Shown piece by piece: positions 1 to 13,402 of a stretch of 26,133 nucleotides of DNA (the first letter of the stretch is position 1; each line of letters begins with the position of its first letter). Made by a program: the position numbers and the translations under genes. The notes under the pieces were generated by a model. The model did not search any database, was not told the origin of the DNA, and saw only the letters and a list, made by a program, of their open reading frames with translations. The DNA is from Spongiibacteraceae bacterium (lineage in GTDB: Bacteria; Pseudomonadota; Gammaproteobacteria; Pseudomonadales; CAMLJR01), in NCBI GenBank assembly GCA_035455965.1, contig DATIED010000267.1:1-26133 (forward strand), given 5' to 3'.

Positions 1-149
1 AAATCGACGCCATCGAGCGCGTTGACCGTTTGTTCGCCCAGTTGAAATGTCTTGGCCAAATCGCGCAGCTCGATGACGATATCGTTCCGTGTCGCAGCGG
101 CGTCGAGCGGACGGAGCTCAGTAGCGCTTACCGACACATCGTCATTCAT
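1..149 (-). CDS. ABC transporter ATP-binding protein, MacB/LolD-like; N-terminal fragment running off the window edge
   Basis: Not in the ORF track. Manual translation from the ATG at 149 gives MNDDVSVSATELRPLDAAATRNDIVIELRDLAKTFQLGEQTVNALDGVD, the typical pre-Walker-A segment of MacB/LolD ATPases. It overlaps the upstream adaptor gene's stop by 8 bp (operon coupling). Confidence 0.8.
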   Translation of the reverse strand, partial: MNDDVSVSATELRPLDAAATRNDIVIELRDLAKTFQLGEQTVNALDGVD

Positions 150-1278
150 GTTTTATCTCGGCGCGCACGCCTTCTTTAATGCCTGGTTGATCCGGGCTGC
201 GCACCACCAATTCGCCCTCCTGCAGACCCGACCGCACTTCGGTAAACGTGAAATTGCCGATGCCCAACTGCAATTTATGCTTGTTGATGGTTTCTTTTTT
301 CGTATCGAGCACCCATACATTATCGGTATTGACCAACGCTTCGGTCGGCACTCTCAGCACGCGCTCGACATTTTTTAAAACAATCGTAACGTCGGCGCTG
401 TATCCGATCAGCAAAATGACATCCTGCGGCACTTCGTCGAAACGCACATCGACATCGACAGTGCGCGCCTGCTTTTCCAGATCGAGCACATAGGGCGCGA
501 TGCGCGTCAGCTTGCCGCTGAACTGGCGATCGCGAAATGCATCGAGCGTAATTTTGACCGGCATACCCAAGCGCAATGCCGCCGCGTCCACTTCGTCGAT
601 CGGCGCGGTGGCATACAAGCAAGAGGTATCGATCAGATCGACCGCCGGCGGTGTCGCCACGCCCGGCGGCGACGGTGTTACGTATTCGCCGAGCTCACCG
701 TTGATTTCGGCCACCACGCCGGCAAACGGCGCGCGCAATTGAAAGCGCTCCAACACCGCCTGTTGCGTCGCTAATTGCGCCTCTGCGGAAGCTATCTGCG
801 ATTGCGCCGCCGCACATGCGCCCTGCTGCGCCAATGCATTGCTCTGCGCATTATCGGCGGCATCGATCGAAACCAGCTTGCGCTCGGCCAGTGTTTGCAG
901 GCGCAGCGATTCGCGCTCGCTGCGCTGCGCCATGACGCAGACCTGCTGTTGCGAATGCTTGGCGGAGTTTAATGCTGCCTGTGCCTGTTGTACTTCGGCG
1001 TGATGATCGCGATCCCACAACTCCAGCAGTAATTGACCGGGCTCAACGCGATCGCCCTTCTGCACCAATAGTTTGTCCACCACGCCGCCCAGCGGCATCG
1101 ATAACTTGGAGCGTCGGCACGCCTTGATGGTGCCGGCGCGCGTATTCGATACTGTTTGCTCAACCGCACCAAACTCTGCTTTGGTCACCCATACCTGTAG
1201 CGGATCGGGGCGCATGCGCCAACCCAGTAAAATTATCGCCACCACCAGTAGAGCCACCACTATTGCAATTTTTTTCAA
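142..1278 (-). CDS. Efflux periplasmic adaptor (membrane fusion protein, MacA/HlyD family)
   Basis: N-terminal TM anchor (KKIAIVVALLVVAIILLGW), lipoyl half-motifs (GGVVDKLLVQKGDRVEPGQLLLEL; LRAPFAGVVAEINGELGE), a central coiled-coil hairpin and a beta-barrel part. Start moved from 1320 to TTG 1278 because AAGGAAG lies just upstream; the start is uncertain. Confidence 0.9.
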   Translation of the reverse strand: MKKIAIVVALLVVAIILLGWRMRPDPLQVWVTKAEFGAVEQTVSNTRAGTIKACRRSKLSMPLGGVVDKLLVQKGDRVEPGQLLLELWDRDHHAEVQQAQAALNSAKHSQQQVCVMAQRSERESLRLQTLAERKLVSIDAADNAQSNALAQQGACAAAQSQIASAEAQLATQQAVLERFQLRAPFAGVVAEINGELGEYVTPSPPGVATPPAVDLIDTSCLYATAPIDEVDAAALRLGMPVKITLDAFRDRQFSGKLTRIAPYVLDLEKQARTVDVDVRFDEVPQDVILLIGYSADVTIVLKNVERVLRVPTEALVNTDNVWVLDTKKETINKHKLQLGIGNFTFTEVRSGLQEGELVVRSPDQPGIKEGVRAEIKHE

Positions 1279-1400
1279 TGCAATGCTTCCTTTGCTGTAT
1301 CGAGTCGGCCGCATGCGCATTCGACGCAGAAAACAAAAATACTCGGCAAACGCCGCGCGCGAATTTACAATTTCTCACCATCGCGCAACTTTTTACCATC

Positions 1401-1542: not shown

Positions 1543-1587
1543 CTGTCACGCTCATGTCATCGCGACTTCACATTCCATCGACATACT
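1543..1587 (+). promoter_or_regulatory. Putative PhoB-dependent promoter (three Pho half-sites plus -10)
   Basis: CTGTCAC(1543-49)-4-ATGTCAT(1554-60)-4-ACTTCAC(1565-71)-10 bp-CATACT(1582-87). The 11-bp period and 10-bp spacing match the three promoters upstream of phoB, pstS and pstC. The spacers are GC-rich, which is atypical. Confidence 0.7.
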
Positions 1588-1622
1588 TTCACCAGTTTAT
1601 TGTCCATCTGGAGTATGGCCCT

Positions 1623-2324
1623 ATGAAAATTACGACCAGGAGCAAAAGTTTGGCGGCGGCCATCATCGCTGCCACTTTTTTCGGCCCGTTGCTCAGCAGC
1701 GCCGAAGCCGCCACCGCCAATGTACGCATCACGGAATGGATGTATAAAAACGAAGGCAGCCCCGGTGAATTTATCGAATTCACCAATCTCGGTTCGGTCG
1801 CCGTCGACTTGACCGGCTGGAGTTATGCCGACAGCTCGGCGAAGGCCGGCGATGTATCGCTATCCGCATTCGGTACCGTGGCGGCCGGCGAATCGGTGAT
1901 TTTGACCGAAGCCAGCGCCAGCGCGTTCCGCACCGCCTGGAATTTGTCCGCCAGCGTTAAAATCATCGGCGGCAACAGCAAGGATAATCTCGGCAACGGC
2001 GATGCGATCAATCTGTACGACAGCAGCAAAACACTGGTCGACTCGCTGGTATACGGCAGCTCGCCGTTGACCGACGGTAAGAGCGGACGCCCCGGCAGCG
2101 CAGCGGCGCTCGGCGGCCAGAATCCCGCGCAGTGGGCCCTGTCTTCGGTCGGCGATATCGAAGGTTCTTACGCATCGATCGGCGGCGATATCGGCAGCCC
2201 GGGCAAAACCTCCTTCGTCTCCGCGCCCTCCGCAGTGCCGCTACCGGCCGCGCTGCCAATGTTCTTAAGCGGCTTCGGTCTGCTGGGGCTGGGCGGCCTG
2301 CGTCGCAAAAACTCCGCTAAATAA
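1623..2324 (+). CDS. Secreted lamin-tail-domain (LTD) protein with VPLPA-CTERM (exosortase-target) anchor, 233 aa
   Basis: SD GGAG at 1610-13 and ATG at 1623. Signal peptide MKITTRSKSLAAAIIAATFFGPLLSSAEA. LTD signature VRITEWMY...GEFIEFTNLGSVAVDLTGWSY...ESVIL...LGNGDAINLYD. C-terminus VPLPAALPMFLSGFGLLGLGGLRRK (motif, TM segment, basic cluster). Confidence 0.88.
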   Translation: MKITTRSKSLAAAIIAATFFGPLLSSAEAATANVRITEWMYKNEGSPGEFIEFTNLGSVAVDLTGWSYADSSAKAGDVSLSAFGTVAAGESVILTEASASAFRTAWNLSASVKIIGGNSKDNLGNGDAINLYDSSKTLVDSLVYGSSPLTDGKSGRPGSAAALGGQNPAQWALSSVGDIEGSYASIGGDIGSPGKTSFVSAPSAVPLPAALPMFLSGFGLLGLGGLRRKNSAK

Positions 2325-2526
2325 GCGCACTGCACTCAATCGGTCTTACACAGCCGGTTGTACCAGTCGGTTGCAAACGAACCGACGCTGCCATCAGCCT
2401 TACCCCGCGACGGTTATACATCACCTGTCGCCGGGGCACTCTTATCCCACCCTCCACCGGCTTGCATAGCCTCGATCGTTGCGGAACAATGCCGCTCCGC
2501 TGCGATTACAATCGATAAGGAAAGCT

Positions 2527-5403
2527 ATGCGCCGCCGTCTATTTCCCGAGCCCAACTTATTTAACGCGCTGTTGCGCAGCTTGCTTTTAGCGGCGGCTTT
2601 TCTGCTTCATACCCCATCATTACACGCCGCCGACGAAATCCCTTACCAACAATTCGTACTCGCTAACGGCCTGCGGCTGATCGTGCACGAAGACCATAAA
2701 GCGCCATTGGTGGCGGTCGATTTGTGGTATCACGTCGGCTCGAAAAACGAAAAGCCAGGCCAAACCGGCTTTGCGCATTTGTTCGAGCATCTGATGTTCA
2801 ATGGCAGCCAAAATTTTAACGACGAATATTTCCGCCCGTTCGAAAAAGCCGGCGCCACCGATCAGAATGGCACCACCAGTAACGATCGCACGAACTATTT
2901 CGCTACCGTGCCGACGCCGGCGCTCGACATGGCGCTGTGGATGGAGTCGGATCGCATGGCAAATTTATTGCCTGCGCTGGATCAGGCGAAATTGGATGAA
3001 CAACGCGGCGTGGTGAAAAACGAAAAGCGCCAGGGCGATGATCGTCCATTCGGTAAGGTATGGGCTTTCATCGCCGCGCACACTTTCCCGGCCGGACATC
3101 CGTATGCCTGGGAGCCGATCGGCTCGATGGCCGATCTCGATGCGGCAACGCTCGACGACGTGCATGCCTGGTTTAAACAATACTACGGCCCCAATAATGC
3201 AGTGCTGGTCATCGCCGGCGATATCGATACGGCAGCGGTTAAAAAGCAGGTCGAACATTATTTCGGTTCGATTCCTCCAGGCCCGGCTCCACAGCAAATC
3301 GAAAGTTGGATCGCCAAACGCAGCGAAGAGAAGCGCGCGACGCTGCAGGATCGAGTGCCGAATGCGCGCGTTTATTTGATCTGGAATACGCCGCCGGCGC
3401 GCGACACAGTATCGAATCAACTCGATTTGCTCGCCGATCTGCTGGCCGGCGATGCCGACGGCTTTCTCACGCAAAAGCTGGTGCAGCAAAAAAAACTGGC
3501 CACCAATGTCAGCGCACTTAACTACGGCCGCGAAATCGCCGGGCAATTCTGGATCACTGCCGACGCCGCGCCGGGCGTCGATCCGCTCCTGCTCGAACAA
3601 CAATTGCGCGCGGCGCTACGCGAGTTTCTACAGCGCGATCCGCATGCTGCCGATTTAGCGCGGGCTAAAATTAATTATCGCGCAAACTTTTTGCGCCAAC
3701 TGGAAAAAGTCGGCGGCTTCAGCGGCAAAGCCGATGTATTAGCCAGCGGCGCAGTGTTCGCCAACGACGCGAGCTATTATCAGCGCGCGCTGCGCGACGT
3801 CGAAACCACCAGCGGCACGCAACTGCGCGATGTGGCGCGCCAGTGGCTCGATAGCGGCGTCTACGTACTGCAGGTAACACCGCAGGCCGAATTGAAAGCC
3901 AACGGCGAAGTCGTCGATCGCTCGCAAGTGCCCGCCCCCGGTGCCGCACCCGCGCCGAATCTACCGCCGGTGCAGCGCGCGCAACTCGATAACGGCATGC
4001 AATTAATACTGCTGCGCCGCCCCGAACTGCCGCTGGTAGAAATGGAGTGGCAATTGCCGATCGGCCGCAACGTCGATGGCTGGCAACACGCGGGCTTAAG
4101 CGATTTTGCGCTGCGCATGTTGCTGGAGAGCAATGCCGAACTCGACAGCGCGGCAATCGCGGCAAAAATTCATAGCCTGGGTGCCGAAATCGATACCTTC
4201 ACACGTATCGATAGTGCGGGCGTGCGCTTATCCGCCCTGAAAGACCATCTCGATGCCAGCACTGCTTTATTTGCGCGCTTAATTCGCCAGCCCGACTTTG
4301 CCGATGTGGCGATCAAGCGTTTGCAGGCGCAAACGCTGGCAACCATCAAACGCGAAGAGCAATCCGGCAACGGCCTGGCGCAACGAGTCCTGCCGCGCCT
4401 ACTGCTTGGCACCACCGATGCGGATAGCGGACCGCTGAGCAGCAATGGCCGCCGCAGCGTGATCGCCGCACTCGATCGCGAGCAACTGCAAAATTTTCAT
4501 CAACGCTGGTTTAATCCGCAACGAGCAACCTTGATTGCGGTGGGCGACTTAACCATGGAGCAGTTCAAGATACTGGCGGAGCAATATTTTTCAGAACGAC
4601 ATTTTGCGGAACAACATGCTACCGATGCGCATCAGGCCAGGGGCGAAAAAACAACGCGATGGCCCACTGCGACGACCGCGCTACCACCGGCACATAGCGT
4701 TACAGCGGTCGATATGTCAGCAGTGGCCGCAAAGCCAACGCTGTATTTTATCGATCTGCCCGGCAGTAGCCAGGCCAATATCAGCGCGGCAACCGTGTTG
4801 CCCGCTGCGAACACCATCGATATGACCGCCCTGAGCCTGGCTAACAATATATTCGGCGGTGGCTTTACCTCGCGCTTGAATTTAAATTTGCGCGAAGATA
4901 AACACTGGAGTTACGGCACCTATAGCAGCCTGCTCGAAAGCCGTGGCACCCAATTCTGGATAGCCGCCGGCAATGTGCAGATCGACAAAACCGGCGCAGC
5001 GTTGGCAGAAATGCGCAATGAATGGCAGCAATTCGCCGGCGCGACCAGCAGCGCCAAACCGGTAACGAGCGATGAGTTCGAAAAAGTTCGCGAACAACGC
5101 ATCCGTCAGCTGCCCGGCGCCTACGAAACCAACAAAGCGCTGCTGCAGGCATTCTCCAAAAATGTGCAGTTGCAGCGGCCGGATAATTATCTCGCAGACG
5201 AAAGCGCTCGCCTGCGTGCGCTTGATCTAACGCTGCTGCAACGCCAGGTCGCTGCACTGTCGCCCAGCCATGCGGTATGGCTGGCGGTCGGCGACAAGCA
5301 AAAAATGCTGCCGCAACTAATGTCTTCACAACTACAGCAACTCGGCTGGGGCGATATCGTCGAACTCGATGTGGAGGGAGTACCGCTCAAGCAGGGACAC
5401 TAA
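2527..5403 (+). CDS. M16 family (pitrilysin/insulinase-like) zinc metallopeptidase, exported, two-half fusion
   Basis: Inverted zincin motif HLFEH (AHLFEHLMFNGS), downstream EQRGVVKNE, and a second non-catalytic M16 half. SD AAGGA precedes ATG 2527. Signal peptide ends ...SLHA|ADE. Confidence 0.93.
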   Translation: MRRRLFPEPNLFNALLRSLLLAAAFLLHTPSLHAADEIPYQQFVLANGLRLIVHEDHKAPLVAVDLWYHVGSKNEKPGQTGFAHLFEHLMFNGSQNFNDEYFRPFEKAGATDQNGTTSNDRTNYFATVPTPALDMALWMESDRMANLLPALDQAKLDEQRGVVKNEKRQGDDRPFGKVWAFIAAHTFPAGHPYAWEPIGSMADLDAATLDDVHAWFKQYYGPNNAVLVIAGDIDTAAVKKQVEHYFGSIPPGPAPQQIESWIAKRSEEKRATLQDRVPNARVYLIWNTPPARDTVSNQLDLLADLLAGDADGFLTQKLVQQKKLATNVSALNYGREIAGQFWITADAAPGVDPLLLEQQLRAALREFLQRDPHAADLARAKINYRANFLRQLEKVGGFSGKADVLASGAVFANDASYYQRALRDVETTSGTQLRDVARQWLDSGVYVLQVTPQAELKANGEVVDRSQVPAPGAAPAPNLPPVQRAQLDNGMQLILLRRPELPLVEMEWQLPIGRNVDGWQHAGLSDFALRMLLESNAELDSAAIAAKIHSLGAEIDTFTRIDSAGVRLSALKDHLDASTALFARLIRQPDFADVAIKRLQAQTLATIKREEQSGNGLAQRVLPRLLLGTTDADSGPLSSNGRRSVIAALDREQLQNFHQRWFNPQRATLIAVGDLTMEQFKILAEQYFSERHFAEQHATDAHQARGEKTTRWPTATTALPPAHSVTAVDMSAVAAKPTLYFIDLPGSSQANISAATVLPAANTIDMTALSLANNIFGGGFTSRLNLNLREDKHWSYGTYSSLLESRGTQFWIAAGNVQIDKTGAALAEMRNEWQQFAGATSSAKPVTSDEFEKVREQRIRQLPGAYETNKALLQAFSKNVQLQRPDNYLADESARLRALDLTLLQRQVAALSPSHAVWLAVGDKQKMLPQLMSSQLQQLGWGDIVELDVEGVPLKQGH

Positions 5404-6215: not shown

Positions 6216-6938
6216 TCAATTTCCGTCGTGAATCCGCGCTTCCAGCTCGCTGAGGCCAACGTGTCGCACGTCCTGGCCCTTCACCATATATACGACATGC
6301 TCGGCGATATTCAACGCGTGATCGCCAATGCGCTCCAGCGAGCGCAAACCCCACATAATATTTAACACCGAAGAAATGCTGCGCGCATCCTCCATCATGT
6401 AGGTAACCAGCGTGCGCATGGCGGTAGCGTATTCCATATCCACCGCTTTATCTTCCTGCGCCACCCTCAATGCCTGCTCGACATCGAGACGTGCGAAGCA
6501 ATCGAGCGCATCGCGCATCATTGCGCAGACGTGCGTGCCGAGGTGACGGATCTCGACCACGCAGCGCGGCATTTCACCATGGTCGATCAAGCGAATGGCG
6601 TGCTCGGCAATTTTGGTGGCCTCGTCGCCCATGCGCTCGAGATCGTGCAGCGCGCGGGTAATCGCCAGCACCAGGCGCAAATCGCCGGCCGCGGGATGAC
6701 GACGTGCCAGAATCAACGCGCACTCTTCGTCGATCAACACTTCCATTTGGTTGATATGGGCGTCGCCCTTCAAGACGCGCTCGGCCAAACCGCCATCGGC
6801 ATTCATCACCGCATTGATCGCGTCGGCAACCTGGCGCTCGACCATGCCGCCCATTTCCAGCATCCGTGTTTTCACGTCGTCCAACTCAGCGTTGAACTGC
6901 TGCGAAATATGATGCGAGTGAATATCCTTGTCGACCAT
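6216..6938 (-). CDS. phoU: Phosphate signalling complex protein PhoU
   Basis: HISQQFNAELDD start, PAAGDLRLV, DLERMGD and SLERIGDHALNIAE repeats. GAGGT SD lies 8 nt before ATG 6938. Follows pstB. Confidence 0.97.
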   Translation of the reverse strand: MVDKDIHSHHISQQFNAELDDVKTRMLEMGGMVERQVADAINAVMNADGGLAERVLKGDAHINQMEVLIDEECALILARRHPAAGDLRLVLAITRALHDLERMGDEATKIAEHAIRLIDHGEMPRCVVEIRHLGTHVCAMMRDALDCFARLDVEQALRVAQEDKAVDMEYATAMRTLVTYMMEDARSISSVLNIMWGLRSLERIGDHALNIAEHVVYMVKGQDVRHVGLSELEARIHDGN

Positions 6939-6988
6939 AGCCACTTACCTCGTAATAAATCTCTTGCGGTGTCGATCCAAATCGGATT

Positions 6989-7828
6989 TTAACCGTAGCG
7001 CCCGGTGATGTAATCCTCGGTCTGGCGCTGCATTGGGTTAGTGAACAGGCGATCGGTGCTATCGAACTCGATCAGCTTGCCCATGTACATGAAGGCAGTA
7101 TAGTCAGAAACGCGCGCCGCCTGCTGCATGTTGTGCGTAACGATCACCAGGGTATATTTGGATTTTAATTCGTAAATCAATTCTTCGATTTTCAAAGTCG
7201 AAATCGGATCGAGCGCCGAAGCCGGTTCATCGAGCAATACGACTTCGGGCTCGACCGCGATGGTGCGCGCGATCACCAGGCGCTGCTGTTGACCGCCGGA
7301 CATGCCAAGCGCATTTTCGTGCAGGCGATCTTTCACCTCATCCCACAGCGCCGCCGAACGCAGCGAGCGCTCGACCACTTCATCGAGGATCCGCTTCTTG
7401 TTGATGCCTTGAATTCTCAGGCCGTAGGCAACATTTTCGTAAATCGTCTTCGGAAATGGATTCGGTTTTTGAAATACCATGCCGACCCGACGCCGCAAAC
7501 CGGCTACATCGACGCCTTTCTCGTAGATATTGGCGTTATCCAGCAGGATTTGACCTTCGATGCGAACATCGTCGACCAAATCGTTCATGCGATTAAAACA
7601 GCGCAGCAACGTCGACTTACCACAGCCGCTCGGGCCGATGAATGCCGTCACGCGCTTGCGCGGGATATTCATATCGACATCGAACAGCGCCTGCTTGGCG
7701 TTGTAGAAAAGCTTTAATTTTTGCACCGAGAGACACACTTCCTCGCTCTCGAGCGAACGCTGCGCCTGGCTGCGGCCGAGCTGGCTGATATCCATCGCAT
7801 GCGATTTTACGGTTGGCGCTTCCGACAT
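6989..7828 (-). CDS. pstB: Phosphate ABC transporter ATP-binding protein PstB
   Basis: Walker [18 protein letters not shown], signature MSGGQQQRL, Walker B VLLDEP, C-terminal [10 protein letters not shown]. Confidence 0.98.
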
Positions 7829-12431: not shown

Positions 12432-13211
12432 TTATGTGGCGGCGCGACGGCGGCGTGCCATGCCCGTCAAACCGATCAAGCCCGAACCGAACAACCAGGC
12501 TGCTGCAGGAACCGGCACTGCGGGTTGCGCAGCGGCAATTTGCCAGTTGATGGTGGTGGTATTCAGCGATAAACCCCCGCCACTGGTATCGGTACCGGCA
12601 AGCGTACCGGAGAATGCGCTTCTGTCTTCGGAGAAGACGAAGCTCAGCGCCAGACCCTCCCAGTTTTTGCTCGCGGTAGAGAACGAGGTACATACTTTGC
12701 CCAGGCTCGACGTCACACCATTCACGCAAGTGGCAGCAGCGGTTTCGGAATAGACGGATGCACCGCCGCCATTTACCGCACCGGGTAATTTGGTGAAGGT
12801 AAACGTGTTAGTGGCTTCGTCGTACGCACCGGTGCCGGAGAACGATTGAGTGACGCCCGTGTAGCTTTGGCGGCCGTCGAGCAGAATCGCGAGGGCCTGT
12901 GCAGTGGTTTGGGTTCTATAATCGCCGTATTGGATATTACCGGTGAAGGTAACCGCTGCCAGGTTTGTGAAGTCAAACGTCCAGCCGCTGGCTTTCACCA
13001 TCTGAATAGCCGGAGCGGTTTTGTTAGTGGCGGGACCGGAAGCCAAATCGACATACCATACGTTGGTAATCGCGCTAGCTGTGGCTGTATTTACCTTGAT
13101 GCTTGCCAGCGGATCGGCGGCGGTGCCCGAGGTGGCGGTACCGGTATAAGCTGCGAACGAGGGTGAAGCGATAATGCCTGATATTGCTGCGACTAAAGTT
13201 AATTTATTCAT
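12432..13211 (-). CDS. Secreted protein of unknown function with VPLPA-CTERM-type anchor (VPVPA), 259 aa
   Basis: SD AAGGTG and ATG 13211. Signal peptide MNKLTLVAAISGIIASPSFA. Thr/Ala/Gly/Ser-rich beta-type body. C-terminus VPVPAAAWLFGSGLIGLTGMARRRR. Confidence 0.9.
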   Translation of the reverse strand: MNKLTLVAAISGIIASPSFAAYTGTATSGTAADPLASIKVNTATASAITNVWYVDLASGPATNKTAPAIQMVKASGWTFDFTNLAAVTFTGNIQYGDYRTQTTAQALAILLDGRQSYTGVTQSFSGTGAYDEATNTFTFTKLPGAVNGGGASVYSETAAATCVNGVTSSLGKVCTSFSTASKNWEGLALSFVFSEDRSAFSGTLAGTDTSGGGLSLNTTTINWQIAAAQPAVPVPAAAWLFGSGLIGLTGMARRRRAAT

Positions 13212-13402
13212 TTTTATCACCTTTATTATCCGTAAATTATAGGGTTAAGCGACATTGGTTTTATTAGGGAGCAGTGTCACTCTGGTGATGAGCCGTTTTT
13301 ACAACAATCCGAGTGTTGGCTCGTTTATTTAAGTTATAGTTTTTAATGGATCTGTTTCAGTGGGCAATAGCCGAACTACATTGATGAGCCATTCCAACTG
13401 GC

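Follow-up and report, generated by a model that had tools for sequence, protein, structure and literature searches.

A candidate Pho promoter before the gene for an exported lamin-tail-domain protein in a Spongiibacteraceae genome

The locus examined here raises the question of why a small exported protein with a lamin-tail domain (LTD), no recognizable enzyme domain, and an exosortase-type C-terminal tail should be encoded directly behind a sequence that resembles a Pho box. The locus lies on contig DATIED010000267.1 of the Spongiibacteraceae bacterium assembly GCA_035455965.1, and the whole stretch of 26,133 nucleotides is called the window. The window also contains the phosphate genes pstC-pstA-pstB-phoU (11982-6216), pstS (19386-18415), and phoB-phoR (21809-19611), all on the minus strand. 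Among the contigs of the genome, a fragmented one from a soil metagenome (G000; 3.5 Mb, 721 contigs, 55% G+C, 91% complete), the window (C267) is the longest. From comparison of the locus with its relatives, it seems reasonably probable that a PhoB-activated promoter drives an exported, exosortase-anchored LTD protein and that this protein is the accessory half of a phosphorus (P)-starvation surface cassette that has lost its enzyme gene at this locus.

The candidate Pho box and its orthologues

Direct reading of the DNA upstream of the LTD open reading frame (ORF) confirmed what an earlier sequence-only reading had described, namely, three TGTCA-like 7-bp direct repeats in exact 11-bp phase (starting at 1543, 1554, and 1565), followed after exactly 10 bp by the hexamer CATACT (Table 1). 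The spacers are GCTC between repeats 1 and 2 and CGCG between repeats 2 and 3, and the 10 bp between repeat 3 and the hexamer are ATTCCATCGA. The same geometry was present in all three reference boxes of the window, as had been claimed: those of pstC (TTGTCAT ATAA CTGTCAT, 10 bp, TAAAAT), pstS (AGTTCAC ATAA TTGTCAT, 10 bp, TACAGT), and phoB (TTGTCAT ATTA AGTTCAC, 10 bp, TTTAAT). The odd third half-site, ACTTCAC, differs at a single position from AGTTCAC, the variant seen in both the pstS and the phoB box, so the resemblance pointed out earlier holds, and repeats 2 and 3 (TGTCAT-N4-nnTTCAC) mirror the arrangement of the genome's own phoB box (TTGTCAT-N4-AGTTCAC). PhoB-activated promoters lack a -35, and none is present in the candidate promoter; transcription would start near 1594. 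Escherichia coli-type PhoB promoters (pstS, phoA, ugpB) share with the candidate the 7-bp TGTCA-type direct repeats in 11-bp phase, the missing -35, and the 10-bp distance from the proximal repeat to the -10, and those of pstS and ugpB likewise have more than two repeats. The candidate differs from them in that it is a predicted site only, its spacers are G+C rich rather than A/T rich, and its proximal repeat is a TTCAC variant.

The closest homologues of the LTD protein (P0002, P0003, and P0007; 66 to 69% identity) are encoded on metagenome contigs L005, L006, and L007/L008, and these loci are orthologous to the window locus. A divergent gene for an MFP efflux adaptor, 74 to 75% identical to that of the window, occupies the same position in L005, L006, and L007. 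There, the intergenic gap is followed by a gene encoding a 455- to 458-aa phytase-like protein (PF13449, E 1e-56) with its own PEP-CTERM tail, and the LTD gene starts 31 to 54 bp after it. The promoter of the phytase-like gene reads TTGTCAC AGAT GTGTCAT CGCG GTTTCAC, 10 bp, GACACT in L006 and CTGTAAC ACGC CTGTCAT CGTT TTTTCAC, 10 bp, GACACT in L007, and repeats 2 and 3 are retained in L005. The proximal repeat therefore stands 10 bp before the -10 in the candidate, in the pstC, pstS, and phoB promoters, and in L006 and L007. Non-A/T spacers recur in the orthologous promoters (CGCG, CGTT, and CAAG).

In a four-way alignment of the window with L005, L006, and L007, the intergenic DNA had a mean identity of about 48%, and the invariant columns, apart from scattered ones elsewhere, were clustered on GTCATC, TTCACA, xAxACT, and GGAG. 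As judged from this alignment, the clusters are a phylogenetic footprint of the putative box and -10. The sequence-only reading had proposed that the box be sought upstream of orthologues; L005 to L007 carry the footprint, and the exception is a homologue in another genome of the genus, which is considered below. The orthologous promoters precede the phytase-like and LTD genes, and ancestrally the box is therefore the promoter of a two-gene operon. The earlier view of the box as the LTD gene's own thus needs revision, as the LTD gene stands second in the operon in the closest relatives. In the window, the phytase-like gene is absent between the promoter and the LTD gene. The stand-alone state of the LTD gene most likely results from loss of this gene, presumably with about 1.4 kb of DNA. 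When positions 1588 to 1700 were aligned locally with the start regions of both genes in L005 to L007, the phytase-like and the LTD gene gave equally weak scores (14 to 21).

A search for sequencing runs that cover positions 1300 to 2700 listed no RNA run. An unrelated root-metagenome run yielded a 284-nt contig that matches positions 1545 to 1828 at 95% identity and joins the box to the LTD coding sequence, so this arrangement is not an artifact of one assembly. Four differences fall in its promoter region, all outside the repeats and the -10, which lends weak support to the site. Synteny with L005 to L007, where genes for Cupin_8, acetyltransferase, and polyhydroxybutyrate (PHB)-depolymerase proteins follow, does not extend 3' of the LTD gene, and a rearrangement breakpoint is therefore placed directly after it.

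Both strands of the 3.5-Mb assembly were searched with the strict pattern TGTCAY-N5-TGTCAY, which had three matches: the pstC box, the candidate site, and one site inside csrA. A relaxed two-repeat pattern matched six times, at four intergenic sites in the window and two sites in coding sequence (csrA and metG), and a three-repeat pattern matched the candidate site alone. Taken by itself, such a count is only suggestive of a PhoB site, and the argument therefore rests on where the site lies, its orientation, its distance from the -10, and its conservation in relatives. With a half-site matrix pooled from the six half-sites of the pstC, pstS, and phoB boxes, spacers ignored, the candidate ranked 4th among about 7 million positions of the genome and outscored the phoB and pstS boxes.

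The LTD protein, its partners, and its neighborhood

Proteins of about 220 aa that combine an LTD with a PEP-CTERM tail are numerous (741 homologues of similar length, E up to 1e-3), and 80 loci from species-representative genomes other than G000 were surveyed. A PEP-CTERM gene ends 15 to 103 bp (mostly 15 to 71 bp) upstream of the LTD gene in 31 of these 80 loci. Nine partners were typed with Pfam, and all belonged to PF13449, PF06977, or PF22494 except one with a PEP-CTERM match only; the typed partners of the three families were beta-propellers. PF13449 partners were found in a Methylobacter genome, a Rhodocyclaceae metagenome-assembled genome, and Ampullimonas (there downstream of the LTD gene), PF06977 (SdiA-regulated/YjiK) partners in Methyloversatilis, Hydrogenophaga, and Thauera, and PF22494 (choice-of-anchor I) partners in one Methylobacillus and a betaproteobacterium. 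This LTD subtype is also found fused to members of all three families (for example, P0345, which joins PF06977, LTD, and PEP-CTERM), and other homologues fuse it to EEP, metallophosphoesterase, and DUF3616 domains. Together, adjacency and fusion argue for functional coupling of the LTD and the beta-propeller. The stand-alone LTD protein, which had been taken for an oddity, is instead one of a large family whose members are usually encoded beside, or fused to, a beta-propeller, phosphoesterase-like PEP-CTERM protein. The earlier guess of a scaffold for a scavenging enzyme would match the pairing of phytase-like and LTD genes in relatives.

We define the cassette, an uncurated family, by a beta-propeller PEP-CTERM gene adjoining the LTD gene; such a gene is present in L005 to L007 and lacking at the window locus. 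A complex prediction for the L006 phytase-like (27-425) and LTD (22-190) proteins, with 40-row alignments for both, returned a score of 0.00 and a mark of 0.32, which speaks neither for nor against binding of the two proteins. In L019 (Methyloversatilis, 6760-7482) and L039 (Methylobacillus, 6997-7509), an extra small PEP-CTERM gene follows the LTD gene, and some lineages may have a cassette with three exosortase substrates.

At 61 loci, we examined the 250 bp that precede the first gene of the cassette. The set consisted of the window plus other loci whose LTD genes are of the PEP-CTERM type, with actinobacterial, cyanobacterial, and a few ambiguous loci set aside. A Pho box was scored as two repeats (score of at least 9 of 12) followed after exactly 10 bp by nAnnnT. 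Such a box was present in 16 of the 61 cassette promoters in the forward direction, compared to 1 of 61 on the reverse complement of the same regions, a mean of 0.1 per 61 after shuffling, and 1 of the 264 regions that precede other genes at the same loci. By our own count, the 16 positives span about 12 lineages; related genomes do not count as independent. These lineages included Methylobacter, Methylobacillus, Paucibacter/Roseateles, Halothiobacillaceae, Ampullimonas, and Rubrivivax. The Methylobacillus box (CTCACAT GAGC CTGTCAT, 10 bp, TAGAAT) is kept in two species, and that of Paucibacter/Roseateles (CTGTCGC GGGC CTGTCAT, 10 bp, TAACTT) precedes an LTD gene that is alone at its locus. 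The Methylobacter psychrophilus box reads ATGTCAT TAAA ATGACAT, and a box-like site was found at the Chthoniobacterales locus L058.

The LTD protein of the window (P0001) matches PF00932 over residues 28 to 145 (E 2.8e-19; 69.9 bits, against a cut-off of 34.3). Its ORF is intact, and of the 51 columns with at least 90% conservation among 39 homologues, none has changed. In the AlphaFold model (40-row alignment; mean predicted local distance difference test [pLDDT], 82.9), a beta-sandwich leads into a C-terminal helix, and pLDDT is low in the signal-peptide region. The top Foldseek matches in the PDB were the Ig-folds of lamin B1 and lamin A/C (3jt0, TM-score by target of 0.67, probability of 1.0), with weak E-values (0.02 to 0.1). 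No catalytic fold was found among the structure matches, and a PDB sequence search with a profile of 40 homologues found no solved relative. The earlier statement that the protein has no catalytic domain is borne out by this predicted structure, a lamin-type Ig beta-sandwich.

The C-terminal VPLPAALPMFLSGFGLLGLGGLRRK of the protein resembles a sorting signal, but it scored below the curated cut-offs of both PF07589 (19.6, against 20.7) and TIGR03370 (19.0, against 25.35); many of the homologues pass the PF07589 cut-off. The tail is termed PEP-CTERM-type here, and not a certified member, because the motif, helix, and basic cluster are visible but both cut-offs are missed. Of the architecture originally proposed, the single LTD stands by Pfam and the signal peptide by eye, while the VPLPA tail does not reach the VPLPA-CTERM cut-off. 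The exosortase gene, which the sequence-only reading had left to be located, was found on contig C138 of the same assembly as XrtD (TIGR04152, VPLPA-CTERM-specific; 589.8 bits, cut-off 400), and C245 encodes another exosortase, which is XrtA-like.

Table 1. Coordinates of the LTD gene, its candidate promoter, and the adjoining efflux gene in the window
Feature	Position	Strand	Basis or conservation
Divergent efflux adaptor gene (MFP/HlyD-MacA type), syntenic anchor	142..1320	-	Pfam and NCBIfam
Distal Pho-box repeat 1, CTGTCAC	1543..1549	+	Aligns with TTGTCAC (L006) and CTGTAAC (L007)
Pho-box repeat 2, ATGTCAT	1554..1560	+	GTCATC invariant in window, L005, L006, and L007
Proximal Pho-box repeat 3, ACTTCAC	1565..1571	+	TTCACA invariant in all four orthologous promoters
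-10 hexamer CATACT, exactly 10 bp past repeat 3	1582..1587	+	xAxACT invariant; GACACT at same distance in relatives
Shine-Dalgarno sequence GGAG, 9 nt before ATG (1623)	1610..1613	+	Invariant in four-way alignment
Gene for 233-aa LTD/PEP-CTERM-type protein P0001, stop codon included	1623..2324	+	Translation, Pfam
Signal peptide, residues 1-29, ending AEA	1623..1709	+	Judged by eye: basic N-terminus, hydrophobic core, AxA site
Lamin-tail domain, Ig-like beta-sandwich	1704..2207	+	Pfam core residues 28-145; confident model to about residue 195
C-terminal sorting signal, residues 204-228: VPLPA motif, hydrophobic helix, RRK	2232..2306	+	Visible by eye

A 302-bp gap separates the MFP gene from the LTD ORF. 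Within it, at 1368 to 1439, lie four tandem 18-nt units (CAATTTCTCACCATCGCG, CAACTTTTTACCATCGCA, CTTACTTTTGCTATTGCA, and CTTACTTTTGCTGTTACA), none of which was found in the aligned regions of L005 to L007; they could be a regulator array of the efflux operon or a rearrangement scar. The interval from the LTD gene to phoU contains, at 2479 to 5403 on the plus strand, a gene for an M16 (pitrilysin-like) peptidase of 974 aa. A second gene for a protein with an exosortase-type tail lies just upstream of the pstC promoter (12432-13220, minus strand). It encodes a 262-aa secreted protein with no Pfam domain that passes the VPLPA-CTERM model TIGR03370 (33.8 to 37.9 bits); its own promoter is of the TATAAT type, and no Pho box was seen before it.

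Other high-scoring sites in the assembly were inspected individually. High half-site scores on C264, C697, and C9 were rejected as Pho promoters, being copies of a repeated element of about 200 bp (by eye) that is present on at least three contigs (C264, about 4739, minus strand; C697, about 118, minus strand; C9, about 5755, plus strand). This element has a conserved core, ATTTCAyyG...TCATCCGTGGTT, and imperfectly complementary ends, tattttctgggcagg ... ccctgaaaata. Sites on C126 and C666 were rejected because they lie inside csrA and metG, respectively, and a site on C276 because it has no -10. A Pho-box-like sequence of the correct geometry (TCGTCAT GACA TTTTCAT, 10 bp, TACAGT) was found on C706 at about 2130 on the minus strand, about 190 bp upstream of a 370-aa ORF without a known family, which may be a further Pho regulon member.

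Weighing the explanations

Under the explanation that we favor, phosphorylated PhoB (PhoB~P) would bind the 11-bp-phased repeats at 1543 to 1571, in place of a -35, and recruit RNA polymerase to the -10 at 1582 to 1587, and the LTD protein would be made under phosphate starvation. The protein would be exported by the Sec pathway and attached to the surface or an exopolysaccharide layer in an exosortase-dependent manner through its PEP-CTERM-class (VPLPA-like) tail. It would be the non-catalytic partner in a two-gene, Pho-controlled surface cassette, in which gene 1 would encode a PEP-CTERM-anchored beta-propeller that is phosphoesterase-like (phytase-like in the closest relatives). Loss of gene 1 from the window locus would have left the promoter directly before the LTD gene. 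The sequence features, the synteny, the promoter footprint, the repeated pairing and fusion of the genes, and the excess of Pho-box-like sites are observed, and from them we infer PhoB binding and induction, as well as exosortase processing. The LTD may act as a binding or tethering module for a substrate (phytate or extracellular DNA), an enzyme, or the matrix, and we read the partner gene as lost or unassembled.

Several observations weigh against this explanation. By a rough base-composition estimate, about 1.2 chance matches to the strict pattern are expected, versus the three seen. The 4-bp spacers of the candidate are not A/T rich as those of the three reference boxes are, and the earlier caution that G+C-rich spacers weaken the match proved real. 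In the matrix scan that the sequence-only reading had proposed, the high rank held for the half-sites, while scoring the spacers lowered the candidate to rank 84 and a position-specific 18-mer to rank 719; the spacer-inclusive matrix, built on only three sites, is overfitted. The tail of the protein is below threshold, as described above. A same-genus homologue in genome G004 (59% identical and in a different context) has no convincing box, and an LTD-gene homologue occurs in only 3 of 12 other genomes of the genus. No PF13449, PF06977, or PF22494 gene was found in the 91%-complete, 721-contig assembly, and a function that depends on such a partner therefore has no visible partner.

The spacers, the lower ranks, and the modest excess over chance would also fit repeats that arose by chance, or a different OmpR-family regulator that uses 11-bp-phased direct repeats, in either case without phosphate control. 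We regard this as rather improbable, given that the footprint is kept in three orthologous promoters amid largely diverged DNA, that repeats 2 and 3 copy the phoB-box arrangement with the exact 10-bp spacing to the -10 found in all three references, that motif and geometry recur in about 12 lineages but in only 1 of 264 control promoters, and that a partner family of the cassette is linked to P scavenging. As far as sequence comparison goes, the site is best read as controlled by PhoB, on the grounds of its pst/phoB-like geometry, the footprint in orthologous promoters, and recurrence across lineages. A promoter on the opposite strand is a very improbable main explanation. In that case, GTGACA (1549-1544), the minus-strand reading of repeat 1, would be a sigma-70 -35 that serves the divergent efflux operon and, with AATAAT at 1525 to 1520, drives the MFP gene. 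A consensus scan does give a 10/12 match on the minus strand, and the MFP gene runs divergently at each of the four syntenic loci. However, the proposal accounts for only one of the three repeats, and the conserved repeats 2 and 3, the plus-strand -10, and the Shine-Dalgarno sequence point to the plus-strand gene. It was rejected as the main explanation because the matching -10 is absent in L006, although it and Pho control are not mutually exclusive.

If the promoter is a true Pho promoter, the LTD gene could still be a relic, left over after deletion of the phytase-like gene, transcribed but useless, and in the process of being lost. The partner gene is missing at the locus, none of the beta-propeller partner families turned up in the assembly, and the LTD gene is patchy in the genus. 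Furthermore, all five genomes checked among those with LTD-only, Pho-boxed loci have a PF13449 gene elsewhere, which suggests that the LTD protein normally needs such a partner. Against this, the ORF is undamaged, signal peptide and sorting signal included, and 51 of 51 conserved positions are kept, and this lack of decay argues against a pure relic. The 95%-identical variant with the same arrangement in an unrelated sample indicates persistence through some divergence, and in so highly fragmented an assembly the partner may be unassembled. We therefore consider a relic unlikely and continue to favor an accessory LTD protein under PhoB control.

Known systems and implications

LTDs on secreted phosphoesterases are already well known, and besides ExeM of Shewanella, Xds of Vibrio is a further LTD-bearing secreted phosphoesterase/nuclease. 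ExeM consists of an LTD, an OB-fold, an EEP nuclease, and a C-terminal sorting signal; its LTD is not catalytic, and deletion of the LTD lowers nuclease activity in vitro but is tolerated in vivo, with the role of the domain described as unresolved (PMC6085458). ExeM and the window protein are both exported, with an N-terminal LTD and a C-terminal anchor, and ExeM is tied to extracellular phosphoester use. They differ in that the LTD of the window forms a polypeptide of its own, complete with signal peptide and exosortase-type anchor, and in that the enzyme partner in its relatives is a beta-propeller and not an EEP nuclease. The ExeM model NF033680 gave only 14 bits on the LTD protein, over the LTD.

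The PF13449 family of cassette gene 1 in the closest relatives includes NSP_RS03145 of Nodularia spumigena, an "atypical alkaline phosphatase" that is strongly induced by P limitation (PMC9846622). This protein is cyanobacterial and, as far as checked, has no PEP-CTERM anchor, and the window itself has no PF13449 gene. PEP-CTERM genes of floc-forming bacteria are under PrsK/PrsR and sigma-54 control and are tied to floc formation. PepA of Zoogloea and Aquincola flocs (PMC1569441, PMC9850573) is, like the window protein, a small secreted protein with a PEP-CTERM-class tail in an exosortase-containing genome. The window gene differs in having a Pho-box promoter and an LTD, and the floc_PepA model matches its product in the tail only (19.5 to 26 bits, against a cut-off of 80). 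The literature search found no report of PhoB control of an LTD/PEP-CTERM protein or of such a cassette, subscription journals being outside the search, which agrees within that scope with the earlier statement that no PhoB-controlled LTD/exosortase module had been described.

A broader reading, which we hold only tentatively and think doubtful as a whole, is that a widespread Beta- and Gammaproteobacterial Pho-regulon module exists in which a free-standing, exosortase-anchored LTD protein is dedicated to partnering three phosphoesterase-like beta-propeller families, that the LTD captures polymeric or mineral-bound P substrates at the surface of the cell, and that it has been kept alone in the window. 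If so, an LTD protein kept and expressed alone would have a binding function independent of a partner.

Bacterial LTDs are common on secreted phosphoesterases and nucleases and have no established function. The broader reading, if true, would give them their first defined role, the capture of phytate complexes or extracellular DNA. By its genomic context, the free-standing LTD appears to be tied both to phosphate starvation and to surface beta-propellers of three families. PhoB would also be a new regulatory class for an exosortase substrate, the one case met being a PEP-CTERM gene described as RpoN-dependent in one report (PMC9850573). The cassette is present in cultured Methylobacillus glycogenes, Methylobacter psychrophilus, Ampullimonas aquatilis, and Roseateles/Paucibacter and is thus directly testable; in soil and freshwater, it may provide access to organic or mineral-bound P in a way that has been overlooked.

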